Origin: Deltaproteobacteria bacterium
Lineage (GTDB): Bacteria; Desulfobacterota; Binatia; UBA1149; SPBQ01
Direction of reading: 5' to 3'
NCBI GenBank assembly: GCA_029262375.1
Contig: JAJCZM010000026.1
Span: 40,198-104,197 of the forward strand
Length of the DNA: 64,000 nt
Part shown: piece by piece, positions 5,531-60,243 of the stretch
How the letters are laid out: each line of letters begins with the position of its first letter
Position numbering within the stretch: position 1 is the stretch's first letter
Notes under the pieces: generated by a model
Told to the model about the DNA's origin: nothing
What the model saw: only the letters and a program-made list of their open reading frames with translations
Database searches by the model: none
Program-made: the position numbers and the translations under genes

Positions 5531-7000
5531 CTAATCGATGTAGCCGAGGGCACGTAGCGCTTCCTGTTCACGCTCCCGCTCGAGCTCCTGCTCCCGCTCG
5601 CCTTGCTCGGCCATACGGGTCTTCGGCCCCTGTTGGCGCGGCAAAGGATGGTCGGCACGCCAGCGCGCCAGCCGTGCCGATAGCGCCTCGAGAATCTTCG
5701 GCTCCGACCCGACGAGGCTCACCTCTTCGAGGGGGTCGCGCTCGAGATGATACAACTCGCCCACGTCTTCGCCCTCGTTCTCGATGAGCTTCCACGGGTA
5801 GTCGACGATGGCTGTCTCAGGGTGGCGTAGGTCTTCGCGAAACGTCGAATTGAACAAGCGACGTTCGAGATAGAAGGCCCGCGGCTCCGGTTCTTCCCGG
5901 CTGCGCAGCGAAGTCGCGACGCTGCGACCGTCTGTTTCGTAGCGGCGCCCCGGATCCACCAGGTCCATCACTGTGGGCGCGAGATCGACCAACGACAGCG
6001 GCGTCTCGAGCACGCTCGGTTCCAGTTGCCCCTCCCACACCGTGAGCCACGGCACGCGCACGGTTTCGTTGAACAACAGGACACCGTGCCCGAAGCCGAT
6101 CAGGTCGCTCGACCGGCGTTCGGCAAGCGACTCGCCGTGATCGGAAACAATCAGCACCAACGGCGATCCCTGCGGAGCCGCGTCGTAGGCACCTTGGACG
6201 ATTCTCTGAACGGCGCGATCACTGGCGGCGATCTCGCCGTCATACAACGACCGTGCGCGCAGGATCTCCTGTTCCTTCAATTGCTCGGCGGACTCGAGGA
6301 AACGATCCAGTTCGCTGTAGCGACGGTAATCGCGCGTGGGCCGCTTGATGAACTTGTCGCGATAGGGTTGCGCCGGTTCGTAGGGTAGGTGCGGCTCCCA
6401 AAGGTGTACCCAGAGGAACCAACGCTCCCCCTCGCGCTCGTCGAGCCACTCGCTCGCGTGCCGCAACACCTCGCCGGCGCTTCGCCATTTCTTGGGAGCA
6501 CGCGGCGCGTTCGTGTCGTCGAAGCCGGCGATATGCCGCAGTTCAGGGTCGAGCCCAATCCGGGCGGTAATGGCAGCGGTTCGGTAGCCCCGCTCCTGCA
6601 GAAAAGTCGCCAACGTGGGAGCGTCGGCATCGAGTCGGCGCGCGGCATTGCGCATGATTCCGTGCTTGCGCGGGTACTGCCCGGTCAAGATCGACGCGTG
6701 CGACGGATCCGTGGTCGGCATGACCGCGAACGCGTTTTCCATACGGACCCCGAGCTTGGAAAAGCGTTTGAGGAAGGGCGTCGTCGGTCGCTTGTAACCG
6801 TAGGCCGATAGACGATCCGCGCGTGTCGTGTCGATCGAGACCAGCAAGATCTTCGATGGCGCGTTGCCGGCGTCGAAACGCGAACACCCTTGCGTCAGAA
6901 AGATCGCCGGCAAGACCACCGACAAGACCGTCGATAAAACCACCAACTGGACGACCGATCTCGACCGATCCCCAAATCTTTGGATGAACTGTCGGCGCAT
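5531..7000 (-). CDS. sulfatase-like hydrolase/transferase (alkaline phosphatase superfamily), membrane anchored
   Basis: LLVSIDTTRADRLSAYGY and VSDHGESL motifs. N-terminal hydrophobic anchor. No CxPxR formylglycine motif, so probably not a true sulfatase. Start chosen at MRRQF; the ORF continues open to 7234. C-terminal tail ...LRALGYID. Confidence 0.7.
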   Translation of the reverse strand: MRRQFIQRFGDRSRSVVQLVVLSTVLSVVLPAIFLTQGCSRFDAGNAPSKILLVSIDTTRADRLSAYGYKRPTTPFLKRFSKLGVRMENAFAVMPTTDPSHASILTGQYPRKHGIMRNAARRLDADAPTLATFLQERGYRTAAITARIGLDPELRHIAGFDDTNAPRAPKKWRSAGEVLRHASEWLDEREGERWFLWVHLWEPHLPYEPAQPYRDKFIKRPTRDYRRYSELDRFLESAEQLKEQEILRARSLYDGEIAASDRAVQRIVQGAYDAAPQGSPLVLIVSDHGESLAERRSSDLIGFGHGVLLFNETVRVPWLTVWEGQLEPSVLETPLSLVDLAPTVMDLVDPGRRYETDGRSVATSLRSREEPEPRAFYLERRLFNSTFREDLRHPETAIVDYPWKLIENEGEDVGELYHLERDPLEEVSLVGSEPKILEALSARLARWRADHPLPRQQGPKTRMAEQGEREQELEREREQEALRALGYID

Positions 7001-12550: not shown

Positions 12551-12775
12551 CGCGTGATCTGGCTATCGGGGTGTGGCGCGCGGTTCAAACGGGCCTGCGC
12601 ACAAGGTCGTCGAACACCGGCGGCCAGGCGACGGAAGACCCGTGTGGGTAGCGATAAAAAGTTGGAGTCCGCTAACGGTTCGTGTTTACCTCCGGCCCTA
12701 TCCCAAGGCATTGCGGGGCCACTGCGTCGACGGCGAAAGAACAACGCCGGCTACGGTGACGATGCTGACGACGCG

Positions 12776-12811
12776 GACTTTGCGCACTTTGCGGACTTTG
12801 CGCACTTTGCG
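12776..12811. repeat. tandem repeat (9-bp unit x4, or 18-bp x2) in the pckG promoter region
   Basis: gactttgcg cactttgcg gactttgcg cactttgcg, lying 26-61 nt upstream of the pckG ATG. An AAGGAG RBS follows. Confidence 0.7.
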
Positions 12812-29040: not shown

Positions 29041-29622
29041 TCAGTGACGTGTTTCTTCTGTCGGGGATTCGCAGTCGATGCAGTAGTACTGCTCACCGAG
29101 TTTGCGGTAGTCGTGAGTCATCTTCACAGACAACGCGAGCACGCGCGCCATGTCGCCGCGCTGACCGCGGCGATAGGGTGAGGCTGGGACGTCGAGATAC
29201 ACCAGCGCTTCATCTTCCTCTTCACCCGGCTCGACCTTGAAGACTCCGGGGAACTCTCCCGGGCGCGACGGCTGCGCACCGACGAGCGGCAAAACTGCAT
29301 TGATCAACGCTTGAAAACCTGGCGACATCGCCAACGCCTGTGCCTCACTCAATTCGGACACTGCCGGAAGCGTCGCATCGCCCGCCACTGTCTCTTCCTG
29401 CTCTGCTACTTCTTGCAACGCCAACTCGGCTATCTGCATCGCGGCGACACCGGGCTCGTCGAATCCAACTTCGTTCGACGGCTCGGTGACGTCGTTGGTC
29501 GCTTTCGAATCGCTTCGCTGGTTCGAATCGCTTCGCTGGCTGGAATCGCTTCGGGGCTGCGACTCGCCCTGCTTGTTGCAATCGTGCTCTTGCCGGTCCT
29601 GTTTTTGTCGACTCATGGTCAT
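29041..29622 (-). CDS. hypothetical acidic protein with SDS[SN]QR tandem peptide repeats and C-terminal CxxC
   Basis: Start chosen at MTMSRQ. Repeats RSDSSQRSDSNQRSDS. C-terminal YYCIDCESP. No family recognised. Confidence 0.35.
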   Translation of the reverse strand: MTMSRQKQDRQEHDCNKQGESQPRSDSSQRSDSNQRSDSKATNDVTEPSNEVGFDEPGVAAMQIAELALQEVAEQEETVAGDATLPAVSELSEAQALAMSPGFQALINAVLPLVGAQPSRPGEFPGVFKVEPGEEEDEALVYLDVPASPYRRGQRGDMARVLALSVKMTHDYRKLGEQYYCIDCESPTEETRH

Positions 29623-29910
29623 TTTCCTCGCGACGTCGCAATCGTCGCCGTGGTAGTAAAAGGTAAGCACGTTCCGGGCATCCGCAAGGAGCGCCAGGCG
29701 CGTTCTCGTTCACCTCCTACTGGGCGTTACTTTCATTGGATCGAGCAAACGTGCGAATTATTCACCTCAGTCCGCGTCGTAACGTTCGGCGTTCGCCATC
29801 GTAGAATGAGCGAGCGAGACAACTCCTCGGAACATTGCTCGGAAACCTCCTGGCAAAACTCCTCGCAACACTCCTCGAAAAATTCCCCAATAGATACCGC
29901 CGGAACATTC

Positions 29911-30744: not shown

Positions 30745-30788
30745 AAAAGCCCGGAGCCAATCGGCGACCGGGCGAGCTAGCGGACTAG

Positions 30789-30826
30789 CAAACTTGCAAA
30801 CTTGCGAACTTGCGAACTTGCGAGTT
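30789..30826. repeat. 8-bp tandem repeat (aacttgc[ag]) x4-5 downstream of the DUF547 gene
   Basis: gcaaacttgcaaacttgcgaacttgcgaacttgcgag. Confidence 0.6.
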
Positions 30827-31682: not shown

Positions 31683-31747
31683 TCACCGCGCCCGTTTAGC
31701 GCGCCTGCGAGTAGGTCGCTCTCACGACGCGCGCGAGTAGGCCCTTC

Positions 31748-32539
31748 TCACGACGCGCGCGAGTAGCGCGACATCGCAGACTCGCACAGGTCGTTGTAGC
31801 CGCACCATCCACACAACACTCCGGGCGTCGGGGGGAACACTGTCGCCTCTTCGGCCGTGTCGATACGCGCACTCAGCCGAACTTCGATCTCGTCTGCTTG
31901 AGCGCGCAGAACACGACGCCGCAATCGCGCGCCGGTTTTCAAGAAGTCCAATACCAGCTCGACCTCTTCCGCCTGCCCTTCGCGAAACATTGCCATCGCG
32001 TATGCTTCGAGCTGCTGCGCTTCCTTCCCTTCGAACTTCTTCGGAACTCGCGAGCCCGTCTTGTAGTCGATGATGTGCAAGAGACCGTCTTTGTCGGTCG
32101 CCAATCGATCGATGAATCCCTGGAACTTATGGCGCTCACCGACCGTAACCCGGAAATGGTGCTCGTTCGCAACGGTCGTCAAGCGATCGGACAAGAAGCG
32201 CTCACGATAGTAACGCGACAACATCTCCGCGCCGTTGCGTCGATAGGTTTCCATCGGTGTGCCGGTTTTGACCACACGAACGGGCGCTGAGCCATCGGCA
32301 ATGCGACGGTCCCATTCATCGCAGTAGTACGCGACCGACTGTTCGAGCGTGGGTCTGTTGCCGCCGTCGCGCTGCTGGAACATCCATTCGAGGGCCGAAT
32401 GCACTTGTGTGCCCATGAATCCCTCGACGCCCTGGAATCCTTCTTGGACTCCATCGAGATAACGGTAACGAAATCGTCGCGCGCATTGTTCGAAGGTCGT
32501 CACACGCGAGAAGCTGTAGGTTGAAGGATCGGGCGCCAT
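31748..32539 (-). CDS. PD-(D/E)XK nuclease family protein (Cas4/RecB-nuclease-like) with C-terminal Cys cluster
   Basis: IIDYKTG (D-x-K catalytic motif), an upstream EHHF (E motif), and C-terminal CGWCGYNDLC. Standalone, with no CRISPR context. Confidence 0.6.
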   Translation of the reverse strand: MAPDPSTYSFSRVTTFEQCARRFRYRYLDGVQEGFQGVEGFMGTQVHSALEWMFQQRDGGNRPTLEQSVAYYCDEWDRRIADGSAPVRVVKTGTPMETYRRNGAEMLSRYYRERFLSDRLTTVANEHHFRVTVGERHKFQGFIDRLATDKDGLLHIIDYKTGSRVPKKFEGKEAQQLEAYAMAMFREGQAEEVELVLDFLKTGARLRRRVLRAQADEIEVRLSARIDTAEEATVFPPTPGVLCGWCGYNDLCESAMSRYSRAS

Positions 32540-55096: not shown

Positions 55097-58000
55097 CTAA
55101 CCGCCGTACACCCAGCCCGAACAGATCTCGAACTCAGCCGCACAATTCGATTCGACGCAGCTCAAGCAGCCGCTACTCGATGGGTTCAGACAGTTCAGCG
55201 CGCAGTTCGAAGCAGCGCAGCCGCCCGTTCCACCGTAGCAATCGGCGCAGGCTGCGCTGAGACCGGTGTTGTTCTGTAGACCGGTCGAAATGCACGACGA
55301 GTTGCCGGTACACGACAATCCCAACGATTCGGCTTCCGCCCCCAAGTTGACCGACGCACGCACCGTCTCATCTTCCGGATTCAAACAATTGTCGCCGAGT
55401 ACCTCTGCAAGGCAGATGGTGTAATCGGTGCCGGCCGTCCCCAGCGACGCGATATCGGTGTACACCCGATATACCTGGCCACCGTTCACGGGCACCAAAC
55501 CACTGGCCGCGCTTCCGCCCACCGGAACCGGAGAAGGCGATGCTCCCGCCGCCGAGTTCGCGAGTAGCGAGCCGGGCTGACCGTCGTAAATGCCGGCGCC
55601 GAGCAATCCGCCGCCGCCGTCATGGAAGAGCGTGAGCCTCACGTTGGTAGAAGTCGGCGGCTGGAACAGTACGTCTTCGTCGCCGCCGGATATCGGACCC
55701 GCGAGGTCGACGACGTTGCCGTCGCCATCGGTAACGTTGCTAGAGAAACAACTCCCGATTTCCACACGACGCGCGGAGCGCACACAGACGTTGTAGGAAC
55801 CTGTTCCGGCGCCGGTTACGTCGCACACTTCCACTGTGTAGGTCGATCCGGAGTTGACGAGCGTGAGGCCCGTGCTGCCGGTCTGACCAACCGGAACGTT
55901 TCCGGTCGACGACAAGGTCGAAGCACCGAGCTTGAGTTCCCCACGCGCGAGTAGTGTGTCGCCGAAGTCGTTGTGCAGTTCTACGAAGACTTCCTCGGTC
56001 ACATGCACCGGGAACGAGAACGTATCGCAGTCGCTGCCGAACAGCGGAATGCTGTCATCGCGGCAAGAATCGGTGACGAGCTGGCCGGATTCCAACGTAC
56101 ACGTGGCACTACAGCCGTCGCCGCCGGTCTGGTTGCCGTCGTCGCAAACTTCGCCGCCGAGCACCAAGCCGTCGCCGCAACCGGCCTCGACCACACACAC
56201 CTCGTAGTTTCCGAAGGTGTCAAAGTCGGACGTATCGACCTGCAAGGTGTACTGAGTTCCGCCTGCGACGGCGAAGGGCGCCGTGACGCGTTCGGTGAAC
56301 GTGAATGCATCGGGTGTTTCGCTACCCGACACCGGCGTCGCGCCGTTGTACAGCGCTGCGGCCATCGTAGACGTGCCGCTCAGATTGCGCAGACGAACGA
56401 TGACGTTGGTCGAAGCAGGCGTCGTTAGGCGCACGCCTCTGTCGCCGCCGGCGCCGCTCGCACCGGCGATCTGAACGTCGTCACCGTCGCCGTTGCCGAC
56501 CGAGCCTGTCGTACAATCGCCGAGCGCTACGGTCGGCGCATCGAGAATGCAGACCTGGTACGGCCCGAACGTATCGGTCACCGCGCTATCGACATAAAGA
56601 TAGTAGGTGCCGGCTCCGAGCGAGGTCGGTCCGCCGGTACCGTTCTGACCGGCGACTACCGGTCCCGTGCCAAGTCCGGCAACGGCGCTACCCGCGTCGC
56701 CGGGCGTCGTCACCAACGAGGCTTCGAGGACGGTGGTCGCCCCCTGTTGATTGGTGAGTTCGATGAACACATCCTGTGTACTCGCCAACGTAAACACGTA
56801 GCCATCGTCACTGCCGCTCGGCGAACCGGCGAGGTCGATGCCGTCGGCATCGAGGAACGGATCGATGTAGCCGTTCGAACACGAATCGAAATCGATGACC
56901 GTCGTCGGGGCCGAACAGACCGAGCCGACGCATTCGCCCGAGACACAGTCGTCGCCGATCAGACAATTGTCCCCAAGCGCACACGGATTGCAGGAGCCGC
57001 CGCAATCGAGATCGGTTTCGTCGCCGTTGATCATTCCGTCAGAGCACGATGTGGGTGGAGGCGGATCGCCGAGCCCCGAGCATGCATCGAACGCGGGAAT
57101 GCAGTTGGCATCCAAACAGGTCCGGCATGGCGGCGAGCTCTGGTCGATCGCACAGACGCTCGCGCAGTTGAACAGTCCGCACTCTGAAGAATTGCCGTAG
57201 CACTGCGCGCATCCGCTGCTCAGCCCGGTCGCTGTAACGACGCAGGCGGCGACGCATGACGGAATGTTCGGGTCGGACAAACATCCAACGGTACACGGCA
57301 CTGCTTCGGCTTCGATGTCGAAGCTCATGTGCACGGCCTCGTCGGGCGCGTTGTCGCAGGCGCCACTCGGCGGAAGTGTCGTCGTCGTAGTCGTGGTAGT
57401 CGTCGTCGTGTCCAGCGTCGTCGTCGTGGTCGTCGTCGCGCCGATGTTGCCGGTACACACGTCGAAGGCAGGAATGCAGTTTGCTTCCACGCACGCGATG
57501 CATGCCGGCGCGGTTTGGCTGACAGCGCATTCCCCCGCGCAATTGAGTACGCCGCACTCCGCGGAGTTGCCGTAGCACACAGAACAGGGACCGCTCAGGC
57601 CGGTTGCCAGCGAAACGCAATCGCCGATGCACAGTGCGATATCGGGGGCACTCAGGCAGCCGAAGGTGCAGGTAGTGGTTTCCTCCTGTTCGTCGATCGC
57701 CGCGAGAATGGTTTCATCCGGAACGTTCGTACACGCGCCCTGCCCTCCGGGCAGTGTCGTCGTGGTAGTAGTAGTGGTGGTGGTGGTCGTCGTCGTCGCG
57801 CTACCCATCGTCGTCGTCGTCGCAATAGGCGCATCGGCGCAGAGGTCGAACGCGGGGATACAGTGCGTATCGAGACACGCGACGCAGGCCGGGGAATTTT
57901 GGTTGAGCACGCACTCGGCCGCACAGTTCTGGAAGCCGCACTCCGCCGACTCGCCGTAGCACAGCGAGCAACCCGCACTCAGTCCGGTTGCGGTAGAGAG

Positions 58001-59149
58001 GCAGGCACCGACGCATACGCCGATATCGGGAGCACCGAGGCATCCGAAAGTGCAGGTCGTGGTTTCGGCTTGAATATCCGTGCCGGCCGCGACCGCTTCA
58101 TCGGGCGGATTCGCGCAGGTAGTCAGAGGAATCTCGCCGGCGCCGCAGCTGGCGTTGATCGTGCCGTCGTCGAACGCGTCGCAGTCAAGGTCGAGACCTC
58201 CCATGCGTTTGAGCATGCCGCAGACGCGACAGTCGACCGCATTGGTGATGCAGGTGGTCAGCGCGGAGACATCCGCTGAGCTACCGCAGCCGGCCGGAAA
58301 GGCCACCGCGTAGTCCACGCCGGCACAGCGTGACGCGACCGTGGTCGCGAGCTTGCCGAGCTGCTTGCCGACCTTCGGGTTCACGCCGTCGGGTACCACC
58401 GACTGCACACAGCTCTCGATACCGACCTGATCGATGATCGAGCCGATCTTCAGCCCCGTCTTCTGACAGCTACTGAATGCACGCAGCTTCGTGGCGATGA
58501 GTTTTTCGTAGTCCTTGTGGACGCGCTGCTGGCAAGCGCTCCCGAGTGAGTCCGTATCGGGAACAACTCCGGCGCTCAGATCGACACCGAACAGATCCTG
58601 CGACACCCCGGCGTCCTCATCGACGGCGGCATCGTTGACGGTATCGGCATCGGTAAATCCGTACGAGATGGCTGCGCCGCACAGACTCGCTTCCGTCGTT
58701 TCTGTCTTGGTACGCGACTTCGCTACTTTGCCGCGAAGGTCGCGGGTCCAACACTGCGGGCCGGTTACAGCCGTGAGAAGCCCACGCGAGCCGTCGCGCA
58801 GACAGCTACGTACTTCTTTCCCCTCGGCCTTTACGACTTTCGTGGCGCGCAGGAAGACCTTGTTCACGCACTTCTGCTGGATCGAGTTGAGAGCCTGGGC
58901 TTCCGCCGGGACCGGCGCGGCTATCAATAAAATCGCCGCTATCGGCGCGGCTCTTAAAATCGCCGCTGTCGGCGCGGCTCTTAAAATCGCCGCTATTGGC
59001 GCGGCTCTTAGAATCGCCGCTATCGGCGCGGCTCTTAGAATCGCCGCTATCGGCGCGGCTCTTAGAATCGCCGCTGTCGGCGCGGCTCTTAGAATCGCCG
59101 CTGTCGCGAGTGTGGGGAGTATAGGGATGGACCGGAACGGGTGGATCAT
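55097..59149 (-). CDS. giant secreted cysteine-rich repeat protein with poly-Thr linkers, 4 PPC-like domains and a Myxococcales-type Cys-rich repeat
   Basis: 4 copies of a ~75-aa 10-Cys module (CTFGCL...GLS..C..CYG.S.ECG..NCA..C...C..C...CIPAFD.C). Poly-Thr runs up to 14 residues. CGDGLVLGGEVCDDGNQTGGDGCSATC matches the myxobacterial Cys-rich repeat. PPC-like DxxYxF...Y.VC..E units. Signal-peptide-like AAILLIAAPVPAEAQA follows the N-terminal repeats. Confidence 0.75.
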   Translation of the reverse strand: MIHPFRSIPILPTLATAAILRAAPTAAILRAAPIAAILRAAPIAAILRAAPIAAILRAAPTAAILRAAPIAAILLIAAPVPAEAQALNSIQQKCVNKVFLRATKVVKAEGKEVRSCLRDGSRGLLTAVTGPQCWTRDLRGKVAKSRTKTETTEASLCGAAISYGFTDADTVNDAAVDEDAGVSQDLFGVDLSAGVVPDTDSLGSACQQRVHKDYEKLIATKLRAFSSCQKTGLKIGSIIDQVGIESCVQSVVPDGVNPKVGKQLGKLATTVASRCAGVDYAVAFPAGCGSSADVSALTTCITNAVDCRVCGMLKRMGGLDLDCDAFDDGTINASCGAGEIPLTTCANPPDEAVAAGTDIQAETTTCTFGCLGAPDIGVCVGACLSTATGLSAGCSLCYGESAECGFQNCAAECVLNQNSPACVACLDTHCIPAFDLCADAPIATTTTMGSATTTTTTTTTTTTTTLPGGQGACTNVPDETILAAIDEQEETTTCTFGCLSAPDIALCIGDCVSLATGLSGPCSVCYGNSAECGVLNCAGECAVSQTAPACIACVEANCIPAFDVCTGNIGATTTTTTTLDTTTTTTTTTTTLPPSGACDNAPDEAVHMSFDIEAEAVPCTVGCLSDPNIPSCVAACVVTATGLSSGCAQCYGNSSECGLFNCASVCAIDQSSPPCRTCLDANCIPAFDACSGLGDPPPPTSCSDGMINGDETDLDCGGSCNPCALGDNCLIGDDCVSGECVGSVCSAPTTVIDFDSCSNGYIDPFLDADGIDLAGSPSGSDDGYVFTLASTQDVFIELTNQQGATTVLEASLVTTPGDAGSAVAGLGTGPVVAGQNGTGGPTSLGAGTYYLYVDSAVTDTFGPYQVCILDAPTVALGDCTTGSVGNGDGDDVQIAGASGAGGDRGVRLTTPASTNVIVRLRNLSGTSTMAAALYNGATPVSGSETPDAFTFTERVTAPFAVAGGTQYTLQVDTSDFDTFGNYEVCVVEAGCGDGLVLGGEVCDDGNQTGGDGCSATCTLESGQLVTDSCRDDSIPLFGSDCDTFSFPVHVTEEVFVELHNDFGDTLLARGELKLGASTLSSTGNVPVGQTGSTGLTLVNSGSTYTVEVCDVTGAGTGSYNVCVRSARRVEIGSCFSSNVTDGDGNVVDLAGPISGGDEDVLFQPPTSTNVRLTLFHDGGGGLLGAGIYDGQPGSLLANSAAGASPSPVPVGGSAASGLVPVNGGQVYRVYTDIASLGTAGTDYTICLAEVLGDNCLNPEDETVRASVNLGAEAESLGLSCTGNSSCISTGLQNNTGLSAACADCYGGTGGCAASNCALNCLNPSSSGCLSCVESNCAAEFEICSGWVYGG
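58912..59106 (-). repeat. 27-bp in-frame VNTR (about 6.5 copies) encoding AAILRAAP[I/T] at the extreme 5' end of the giant-protein ORF
   Basis: Unit atcgccgct[ag]t[ct]ggcgcggctctta[ag]a, with near-identical copies. It lies between the only upstream ATG (59147-59149) and the signal-peptide-like hydrophobic segment. Confidence 0.8.
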
Positions 59150-59306
59150 CGACGCGAGTCTCCCGTCGCCTCGCGACGACTACGTGAACGGAAAATAGCA
59201 GGCATTGGATGCCCTGGCCGCGCGCGGGGCCCGACCACTCGCAACGACTACATCCTGAAACAGGTTCTACGGCCCCAAAGCCCGTGATGTCAAGGGATTC
59301 CCAAAG

Positions 59307-59330
59307 CCTAACAAACATTTGTTTGTTAGG
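59307..59330. promoter_or_regulatory. 24-bp perfect AT-rich palindrome (11-2-11), candidate operator in the divergent region between the giant-protein gene and the tesA-like operon
   Basis: cctaacaaaca-tt-tgtttgttagg. It shares the 10-mer tgtttgttag with the TetR promoter spacer at 48772-48781. Confidence 0.45.
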
Positions 59331-59430
59331 GGCGAGTATCTCTCTGCGAGCGCGTCGGAGGGTTCGGGCGGCAGCGCCACCCGAAGGAGTGGGGGTCGCG
59401 GGCGAGCCCATCAGCCGCAGGCCTCGGACG

Positions 59431-59510
59431 AGCCGACAGGCGTTCCCAGCAGCCGACAGGCGTTCCCAACAGCCGACAGGCGTTCCCAGGAGCCTACGCG
59501 TTCCCAAAGG
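59431..59510. repeat. 20-bp minisatellite x3.5 (agccgacaggcgttcccagc)
   Basis: Three near-perfect copies plus one degenerate copy. The period is not a multiple of 3, so it is non-coding and lies upstream of the tesA-like gene. Confidence 0.7.
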
Positions 59511-59532
59511 AGCCGAGGGCCAGGCTCGGCGG

Positions 59533-60243
59533 ATGCCTCCGAACGATCGTGCGCTGGATTCGCGGCTCCCGTCGACCTTGCTAAGGTCACTCGTCGTGCG
59601 ACCGTTTCTTCGTTGCTTGTCAGCGGCCGTATTGGCCTCGTTCTCAGTATGCGCCTCGCCGTCAGGAGCCGAACCGCTGGTCGTTTGCCTCGGCGACTCG
59701 CTGACCGAGGGCTACGGAATCGATCCCGCGAAGTCCTACCCCGCCCTACTCGAGAAACTTTTGGCTGAGCGTGGCTGGCCCGATGTCGAAGTCGTCAACG
59801 CCGGTATCAGCGGCTCGACCTCGGCGAGCGGACGCGCACGTCTGCAGTGGCAGCTACGCCGCAAGCCCGACGTGTTGATCATCGCGCTTGGCGCAAACGA
59901 TGGACTGCGCGGCGTCGAGCTCGACGCGAGCAAGAAGAATCTTGCGTCGATCGTTGAACTCGCGCAGGCAAACGAGATTACCGTGCTGCTGGCAGGCATG
60001 AAGCTACCGCCCAATTACGGCGCCGAGTACACGCAACAGTTCGAGCGCATGTACGGCGAGCTCGCGTCCGAATTCGACGTCACGCTACTCCCCTTCTTGC
60101 TGAAGGATGTCGCCGCGCGCCCGAAGCTGAACCTGCCCGATGGCATTCACCCGAACGCCGAGGGCTACGCGATCGTCGCCTCGACGGTTGCCGATGCGGT
60201 CGCACCTCTTCTCAAGCCCATAACTGCTGTTGGTAACTCATGA
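59533..60243 (+). CDS. tesA: SGNH/GDSL arylesterase, TesA (thioesterase I/lysophospholipase L1)-like, secreted
   Basis: GDSLTEGYG block I, GANDG block III, DGIHPN block V. Signal peptide. The start is ambiguous (59533 or an internal GTG). Confidence 0.8.
   Translation: MPPNDRALDSRLPSTLLRSLVVRPFLRCLSAAVLASFSVCASPSGAEPLVVCLGDSLTEGYGIDPAKSYPALLEKLLAERGWPDVEVVNAGISGSTSASGRARLQWQLRRKPDVLIIALGANDGLRGVELDASKKNLASIVELAQANEITVLLAGMKLPPNYGAEYTQQFERMYGELASEFDVTLLPFLLKDVAARPKLNLPDGIHPNAEGYAIVASTVADAVAPLLKPITAVGNS

Follow-up and report, generated by a model that had tools for sequence, protein, structure and literature searches.

An in-frame 27-bp coding minisatellite in the predicted signal-peptide leader of a large Cys-rich protein from a Binatia bacterium

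The subject of this study is a 27-bp tandem array that is translated as part of a protein leader. The stretch of DNA analysed (hereafter the window: 64,000 nucleotides of contig JAJCZM010000026.1, assembly GCA_029262375.1, from a Deltaproteobacteria bacterium of the Binatia) carries on its minus strand a gene of 1350 codons (55097-59149) which, judging from its open reading frame (ORF) and its homologs, is predicted to encode a secreted Cys-rich protein with poly-Thr linkers, and the array occupies the 5' end of this gene. It is a coding minisatellite: its copies stand head to tail in a number beyond chance, they lie in a translated frame, and the length of the unit is a multiple of three. As for how it arose, we consider it likely that the array is a lineage-specific product of slippage within the signal-peptide coding sequence, either young or homogenised, which the host gene tolerates.

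The array and the leader that it encodes

Tandem Repeats Finder (TRF) places the array at 58931-59106, with 6.5 copies, 95% matches, 0% indels and a score of 310, which is by a wide margin the highest of all tandem arrays in the window. Read on the minus strand, it consists of six full units (58943-59104, codons 16-69; consensus AATCGCCGCTATCGGCGCGGCTCTTAG), each with at most two mismatches and each of the form ACA/ATA GCG GCG ATT CTA/TTA AGA GCC GCG CCG/CCA, that is, [T/I]AAILRAAP. These are followed by a degenerate terminal copy of 30 bp (58913-58942), ATA GCG GCG ATT TTA TTG ATA GCC GCG CCG, or IAAILLIAAP, which continues the TRF array. Because this copy directly adjoins the six units, the limits of 58912-59106 given in the first-pass annotation are right, and with it included the array covers codons 16-79 of the 1350-codon frame. 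The codon listing of that ORF likewise agrees with the annotation in placing the array in frame, 27 bp being nine codons. No such unit appeared in any of 100 dinucleotide-preserving shuffles, the unit has no further copy anywhere in the window, and exact-pattern scans for it found nothing in genome, metagenome and viral contig collections.

The units vary at three positions only. Two of these are synonymous (CTA/TTA, and CCG/CCA in one copy), while the third falls on a second codon position (ACA/ATA) and exchanges Thr for Ile; in other words, the earlier description of copies that differ at 2-3 wobble-like positions is correct in the number of sites and fails for one of them, which is not a wobble position. 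The mean pairwise difference, worked out by hand, is 1.4 of 27 positions, or about 5%. The variants are ordered along the array, with units of the TTAA kind at one end and of the TTAG kind at the other, and A/G and C/T differences among them; at most two adjacent units are identical. On the downstream side, the flank GCCGCGCCGGTCCCGGCG (58904-58921, minus strand) resembles the unit junction GCCGCGCCG-ATA-GCGGCG and can be regarded as a partial repeat.

From its N-terminus, the leader reads MIHPFRSIPILPTLA, six copies of [T/I]AAILRAAP, IAAILLIAAP, VPAEAQA, and then the mature sequence LNSIQQKC. The start codon (59149-59147) and codons 1-15, MIHPFRSIPILPTLA (59105-59149, minus strand), would represent the n-region in its original form together with the start of the h-region. 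The predicted c-region, VPAEAQA (58892-58912, minus strand), offers two possible signal-peptidase-I sites, AEA/Q after residue 84 and AQA/L after residue 86, and aligns with the AQA, VHA, ARA, AHA and AES that precede the conserved QQxC in homologs. The last Arg of the leader, R66, is followed by AAPIAAILLIAAPV and then by AEA/Q or AQA/L, and the best 11-residue hydropathy of the whole leader (2.81 on the Kyte-Doolittle scale) falls on residues 70-80. A complete classical signal of the Sec type, with n-, h- and c-regions, is thus predicted to adjoin the cleavage site, its hydrophobic core being the terminal copy IAAILLIAAP itself. This is also the form in which the annotated position of the array, between the ATG and a segment resembling a signal peptide, is borne out. 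Upstream of the classical signal lie approximately 54 extra residues with six further Arg. Each nonapeptide there combines a five-residue hydrophobic patch with one Pro, and since a patch of five residues is too short, a single nonapeptide is no h-region.

How unusual is such a leader within its own family? We compared it with homologs P0001-P0006 and with loci L001-L005; L002, L004 and L005 are the same as P0005, P0003 and P0004, respectively, and eight relatives were therefore scored (P0001-P0006, L001 and L003). All eight have a signal peptide of the ordinary kind, and none has a repeat in its leader. The residues preceding QQxC number 90 here and 29-38 in the eight relatives, and the leader has seven Arg versus 0-3 Arg and Lys combined in the relatives. 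In the closest ortholog, L003, the leader is MIQPFRSILMLAVALLVATAAPAES, QV follows the predicted cleavage site, and TRF detects no tandem repeat. The predicted signal peptide of 84-86 residues compares with 25-27 in L003 and lies above the usual range of about 18-35, which upholds the earlier view that the array lengthens the n-region of an unusually long signal peptide.

Other kinds of export signal find no support in the leader. A twin-arginine translocation (Tat) signal is not indicated: there is no twin-arginine motif (RRxFLK), the Arg residues are single and nine residues apart, and Pfam gives no TAT_signal match. There is no Cys near the cleavage site, hence no lipobox and no lipoprotein signal. 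A Pfam search with residues 1-95 returned no family match even at E <= 10. What is more, when residues 1-90 were compared by phmmer with 1.84 billion representatives, there were 53 matches and no shared repeat; the 12 inspected, namely the strongest and those near an N-terminus, are unrelated proteins whose only resemblance is a repeat period of nine residues, and a shared repeated-leader module is ruled out on this ground.

The codon usage of the leader sets it apart from the rest of the gene. AGA occurs six times in leader codons 1-83 and once in the other 1267 codons, ATA six times (five in array codons 16-79, one at codon 10) versus once, TTA three times versus never, and CTA four times in each part. 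In twelve long ORFs of the window, AGA accounts for 3.4% of the codons for Arg, ATA for 5% of those for Ile and TTA for 1% of those for Leu. The GC content at third codon positions (GC3) is 0.57 for the array, as compared with 0.74 for the remainder of the gene. This anomaly fits a recent amplification of a 5' gene end that was presumably AT-leaning already. Each added unit brings one Arg and three rare codons (AGA, ATA/ACA and CTA/TTA).

Start codon, upstream region and host gene

The ATG at 59149 is the first start codon past the upstream stop, and no other ATG, GTG or TTG lies in frame before the array; the ORF and codon listing thereby confirms it as the only ATG there, as annotated. A Shine-Dalgarno sequence, GGGAG (59160-59164, minus strand), is found 10 nt upstream, within a block, GGAGACTCGC-N-TCGATGAT, that is kept in L003. 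The ortholog begins MIQPFRSILMLAVA at the aligned ATG, and the first eight residues, MIHPFRSI here and MIQPFRSI in L003, differ at one position. In the alignment of the upstream DNA of the two loci, the parts kept are an inverted repeat, a promoter-like TTGACA-N18-TAGAAC, the Shine-Dalgarno block, and the ATG with the first codons. From this conservation, together with the repeat-free leader of L003, we infer that ATG 59149 is the orthologous start and that the array was inserted into the sequence coding for the signal peptide.

Would the picture be different if translation began further downstream? The first-pass annotation had raised the possibility that the array lies in the 5' untranslated region (UTR) and that the start is a TTG inside the last copy (58925-58927, minus strand), the one further canonical start that this frame offers ahead of the mature part. 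This proposal does not hold, given the Shine-Dalgarno sequence, ATG and first codons kept in L003. Namely, the TTG has no Shine-Dalgarno sequence upstream, and its product, MIAAPVPAEAQA, would be without an h-region, with a best 11-residue hydropathy of 0.69 versus 2.4-3.2 in the leaders of homologs. With this start, a Cys-rich protein whose relatives all have signal peptides would stay in the cytoplasm, and we reject it. Two further frames, an antisense ORF at 58515-59198 and a minus-strand frame at 58806-59507, overlap the conserved mature coding frame and are unsupported.

Further upstream, the promoter-like TTGACA-N18-TAGAAC (59264-59293, minus strand), which a strict consensus scan did not flag, would place the transcription start near 59257 and give a 5' UTR of about 105 nt. 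Just upstream of its -35 box is a perfect 11-bp inverted repeat, CCTAACAAACA-AA-TGTTTGTTAGG (59307-59330), which is probably an operator. Both elements are kept in L003, where their counterparts lie at about 5760-5830, and they are probably the operator and the promoter of the large gene. Within the presumed 5' UTR there is also a small hairpin followed by a T-run (GGGCATCCAATGCCT GCTATTTTCC; 59200-59214, minus strand), partly conserved in L003.

The host gene belongs to a small family with members from Binatia-type metagenome genomes only. The exact 1350-residue protein had no record in a database look-up, and of known families it matches only DUF4215 and myxo_disulf_rpt. Whether the query was the whole protein, residues 1-339 or residues 84-339, protein searches gave no relative closer than 69% identity; the closest ortholog, L003, comes from a metagenome contig (Ga0315338_1000559) and has 81% amino acid identity. 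Relative to L003, the ratio of nonsynonymous to synonymous substitution rates (dN/dS) is 0.07, dS is 1.68, and the nucleotide difference is approximately 25%; at such a dN/dS value the gene is under purifying selection. Across 1291 aligned residues the sole indel is the 59 extra leader residues of the window gene.

Residues 84-339 (58133-58900, minus strand), the N-terminal domain of the mature protein, are confidently predicted to form an all-alpha bundle with invariant cysteines (predicted local distance difference test score, pLDDT, of 87). The family has very few members in public data, and a Foldseek search of solved structures gave no significant match (best E = 0.58). Two imperfect (GTC)n tracts, at 57378-57438 and 57756-57822, encode poly-Thr linkers between Cys-rich modules, and these linkers have the same length as in L003 despite a dS of about 1.7. 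The genomic context is chromosomal, with a GDSL lipase, an ATP-binding cassette (ABC) ATPase and an FtsX-type permease on one side and sulfotransferase, NUDIX and chemotaxis genes on the other.

The window contains other tandem arrays as well. A second array near the gene, at 59431-59506 (plus strand), has a 20-bp unit, AGCCGACAGGCGTTCCCAGC, in 3.9 copies with an 89% match; its period is not divisible by three, and it occupies part of the divergent intergenic region, immediately before a GDSL/TesA-like gene with a probable ATG at 59533. Five short arrays, at 12773-12811 (period 9/18), 29504-29567 (18), 29821-29886 (12), 30772-30823 (8) and 31707-31766 (26), are all apparently intergenic or upstream of genes. 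While the period of 27 is divisible by three, the other window arrays that were placed with respect to genes are non-coding, and several of their periods (8, 20, 26) are not so divisible. Unusual repeat richness of the genome can be set aside, as the density of about 1.4 arrays per 10 kb equals that of related Binatia loci.

Origin of the array and competing explanations

The array looks young, in agreement with the recent expansion proposed earlier. Namely, its units differ by about 5%, as compared with the approximately 25% nucleotide difference between the orthologs (dS 1.68), and the expansion is therefore either much younger than the split from L003 or has been homogenised. In the scheme that we favour, part of the signal-peptide coding sequence would have been amplified by slipped-strand mispairing or unequal exchange. 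The degenerate terminal copy is the probable template. The unit could be derived from the local h-region, ATT TTA TTG ATA GCC GCG CCG giving rise to ATT YTA AGA GCC GCG CCG by the loss of one Leu codon (TTG) and an ATA>AGA change (Ile>Arg; T>G), and such an origin would explain why the Arg codon of the unit is the very rare AGA. The short direct repeats formed by the flank and the unit junction, some 27-30 nt apart, could have seeded the first slippage event. Translation would then run from ATG 59149 through the array and yield a precursor extended at its N-terminus by about 54 residues, namely by six nonapeptides that are cationic, moderately hydrophobic and punctuated by Pro, and signal peptidase would remove the whole leader, array included. 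If the leader is cleaved off in this way, copy number cannot alter the mature protein, which is probably why the expansion has been tolerated. Any effect would be expected in early translation elongation and in export kinetics, since each unit brings one Arg and three of the rarest codons.

That said, four points weigh against this explanation. First, the export of a leader of 84-86 residues with a charge of +7 is assumed. Second, the cluster of rare codons could just as well be a sign of poor translation of the region. Third, low divergence among units could reflect concerted evolution instead of youth. Finally, the window is probably a metagenome assembly, and since a typical short read does not reach the length of the array, about 190 bp, the copy number may be mis-estimated.

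Could the array be an adaptive tuning locus, along the lines suggested in the first-pass annotation? Under this alternative, gain and loss of units would alter the length, charge and rare-codon content of the n-region and thereby the level of expression or export, and hypermutability itself would be selected. The near-identity of the units makes ongoing slippage likely, and the array, being in frame and confined to a removable leader, may vary without harm to the mature protein, each unit adding its AGA, ATA/ACA and CTA/TTA. There is also a precedent in the CTCTT repeats of Neisseria opa genes, which control surface proteins (bioRxiv 10.1101/2020.09.16.300947). However, a leader repeat is found in 0 of 8 relatives and is thus not conserved in the family, no related repeat occurs in other proteins among the 1.84 billion representatives searched, and the tandem-array density of the genome is ordinary. 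We therefore regard selection for a contingency function as unlikely. A still more specific version, in which the array is a hypermutable in-frame dial whose unit number sets the Arg and rare-codon content and so grades translation and Sec targeting without altering the mature product, seems to us improbable. The three slow codons per unit within the first 75 codons would be the sole concrete route from copy number to output besides leader length and charge. If such a dial existed in this uncultured, free-living bacterium, it would be a form of contingency control other than frameshift phase variation. More generally, should the array vary and affect output, it would provide graded control of a secreted protein by way of a disposable leader in the Binatia, where contingency loci are unstudied.

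The opposite possibility is that the expansion is deleterious, mildly or strongly, with the long, regularly charged leader impairing targeting or cleavage and the gene losing its function. Indeed, the leader is three times the family norm, its seven Arg exceed the 0-3 Arg and Lys of the relatives, and the rarest codons are heavily clustered in its first 75 codons. We nevertheless doubt strongly that this is the case, as the frame of 1350 residues is intact with no other indel and a dN/dS of 0.07 relative to L003, and the promoter-like block, the Shine-Dalgarno sequence and the ATG are intact too. In addition, a complete classical n-h-c unit is predicted to have been kept next to the cleavage site, and signal sequences that are long and bipartite are functional in autotransporters (PMC2805444).

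One may also ask whether the array, or at least its copy number, is a product of metagenome mis-assembly. Two Logan contigs from the same population (SRR15505517) are 100% and 99.993% identical to the window; assembled at k=31, they confirm the flanks, and the stretch between 57754 and 59460 that contains the array lies outside them. Namely, contig L007 ends at 57754, where a poly-Thr (GTC)n tract begins, and contig L006 starts at 59460, inside the 20-bp array. The breaks of this assembly at neighbouring repeats, as well as an array longer than a typical short read, speak in favour of mis-assembly. On the other hand, the flanks match independent contigs, the reading frame is preserved, and the variants are ordered with at most two identical neighbours, an arrangement that a large-k or long-read assembler could resolve and that makes a gross artefact unlikely. 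Taking these together, we judge mis-assembly to be a very unlikely source of the array.

The last alternative, in which the array belongs to a 5' UTR or to non-coding regulatory DNA or RNA and translation begins no earlier than the TTG of the last copy, deserves hardly any credence: the rare codons and low GC3 of the array, the weak hairpin potential of each unit (CGCCG-NNNN-CGGCG) and the terminator-like matches in TTTTA-containing units are outweighed by the Shine-Dalgarno sequence, ATG and first eight residues conserved with L003, by a TTG that has no Shine-Dalgarno sequence and would delete the signal peptide found in every homolog, by a period of exactly nine codons, by a marginal RNA fold z-score of -1.95, and by terminator-like matches numbering 3 as against 1.2 +/- 1.1 expected. 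Rfam covariance models gave no match in 58600-59700 at E <= 1; together with that z-score and the lack of enrichment in terminator-like motifs, this disposes of a structured RNA or attenuator. A dispersed element of the repetitive extragenic palindromic or bacterial interspersed mosaic type (REP/BIME) was likewise rejected, as within the window the palindromic core is present only in the array and its flank, plus a chance-level site at 29155. So were iterons and clustered regularly interspaced short palindromic repeats (CRISPR), as the locus lacks spacers as well as any rep or cas context and is flanked by chromosomal housekeeping genes.

Tolerated slippage thus being the likely explanation, the locus would illustrate how much a signal peptide can put up with, its leader having been tripled by slippage while strong purifying selection continues to act on the rest of a gene of 1350 residues. 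For annotation and assembly it holds a practical warning: genes of this kind may be truncated by start-codon callers, and repeats of this kind interrupt k-mer assemblies.

Comparison with known systems

In-frame expansions of signal peptides are familiar from human APOB and PCSK9, where leucine-repeat insertions of 1-3 codons occur in the h-region and leave the mature protein unchanged. The array resembles them in being an in-frame expansion that would not change the mature protein, and differs in adding 54 residues and six charges, and in doing so in the n-region.

Among bacterial signal peptides, the closest parallel in architecture is found in the extended signal peptides of autotransporters and TpsA proteins (N1-H1-N2-H2-C, with an extended signal peptide region, ESPR), which exceed 50 residues and similarly join an extension to a complete classical signal (PMC2805444). 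In contrast to these, the leader described here has no ESPR motif or Pfam match, and the protein carries no autotransporter or two-partner secretion (TPS) domains of type V secretion, only DUF4215 and myxo_disulf_rpt. What is more, the ESPR is a conserved module, whereas the extension here appears to be a recent internal repeat, absent from orthologs. The CTCTT repeats of Neisseria opa genes, on the other hand, are alike in being slippage-prone repeats inside the part of the gene that codes for the signal peptide (bioRxiv 10.1101/2020.09.16.300947). However, the opa units are 5 bp long, shift the frame and switch expression on and off (phase variation), whereas the unit here is 27 bp, or nine codons, and since the frame is kept, no on/off switch is possible, only a change in length.

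In the build of the repeat itself, the array is like the staphylococcal SD-repeat genes (PMC3324548) and the perfect amino acid tandem repeats of Borgs (PMC9879509), with head-to-tail, near-identical units of a length divisible by three. It shares with bacterial surface-protein minisatellites and Borg repeats an extracellular host protein (predicted here), flanking partial repeats, which are also found around Borg tandem repeats (PMC9879509), and a young look. The Borg repeats are A-rich and reside on archaeal extrachromosomal elements, while the present array belongs to a bacterial chromosome region of 62% GC with an ordinary repeat density. Moreover, staphylococcal and Borg repeats lie in the mature protein, where they change its length or add disordered regions, whereas the array studied here is predicted to lie wholly in the cleaved leader. 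Seen against these systems, it is most likely an ordinary coding minisatellite in an unusual position.

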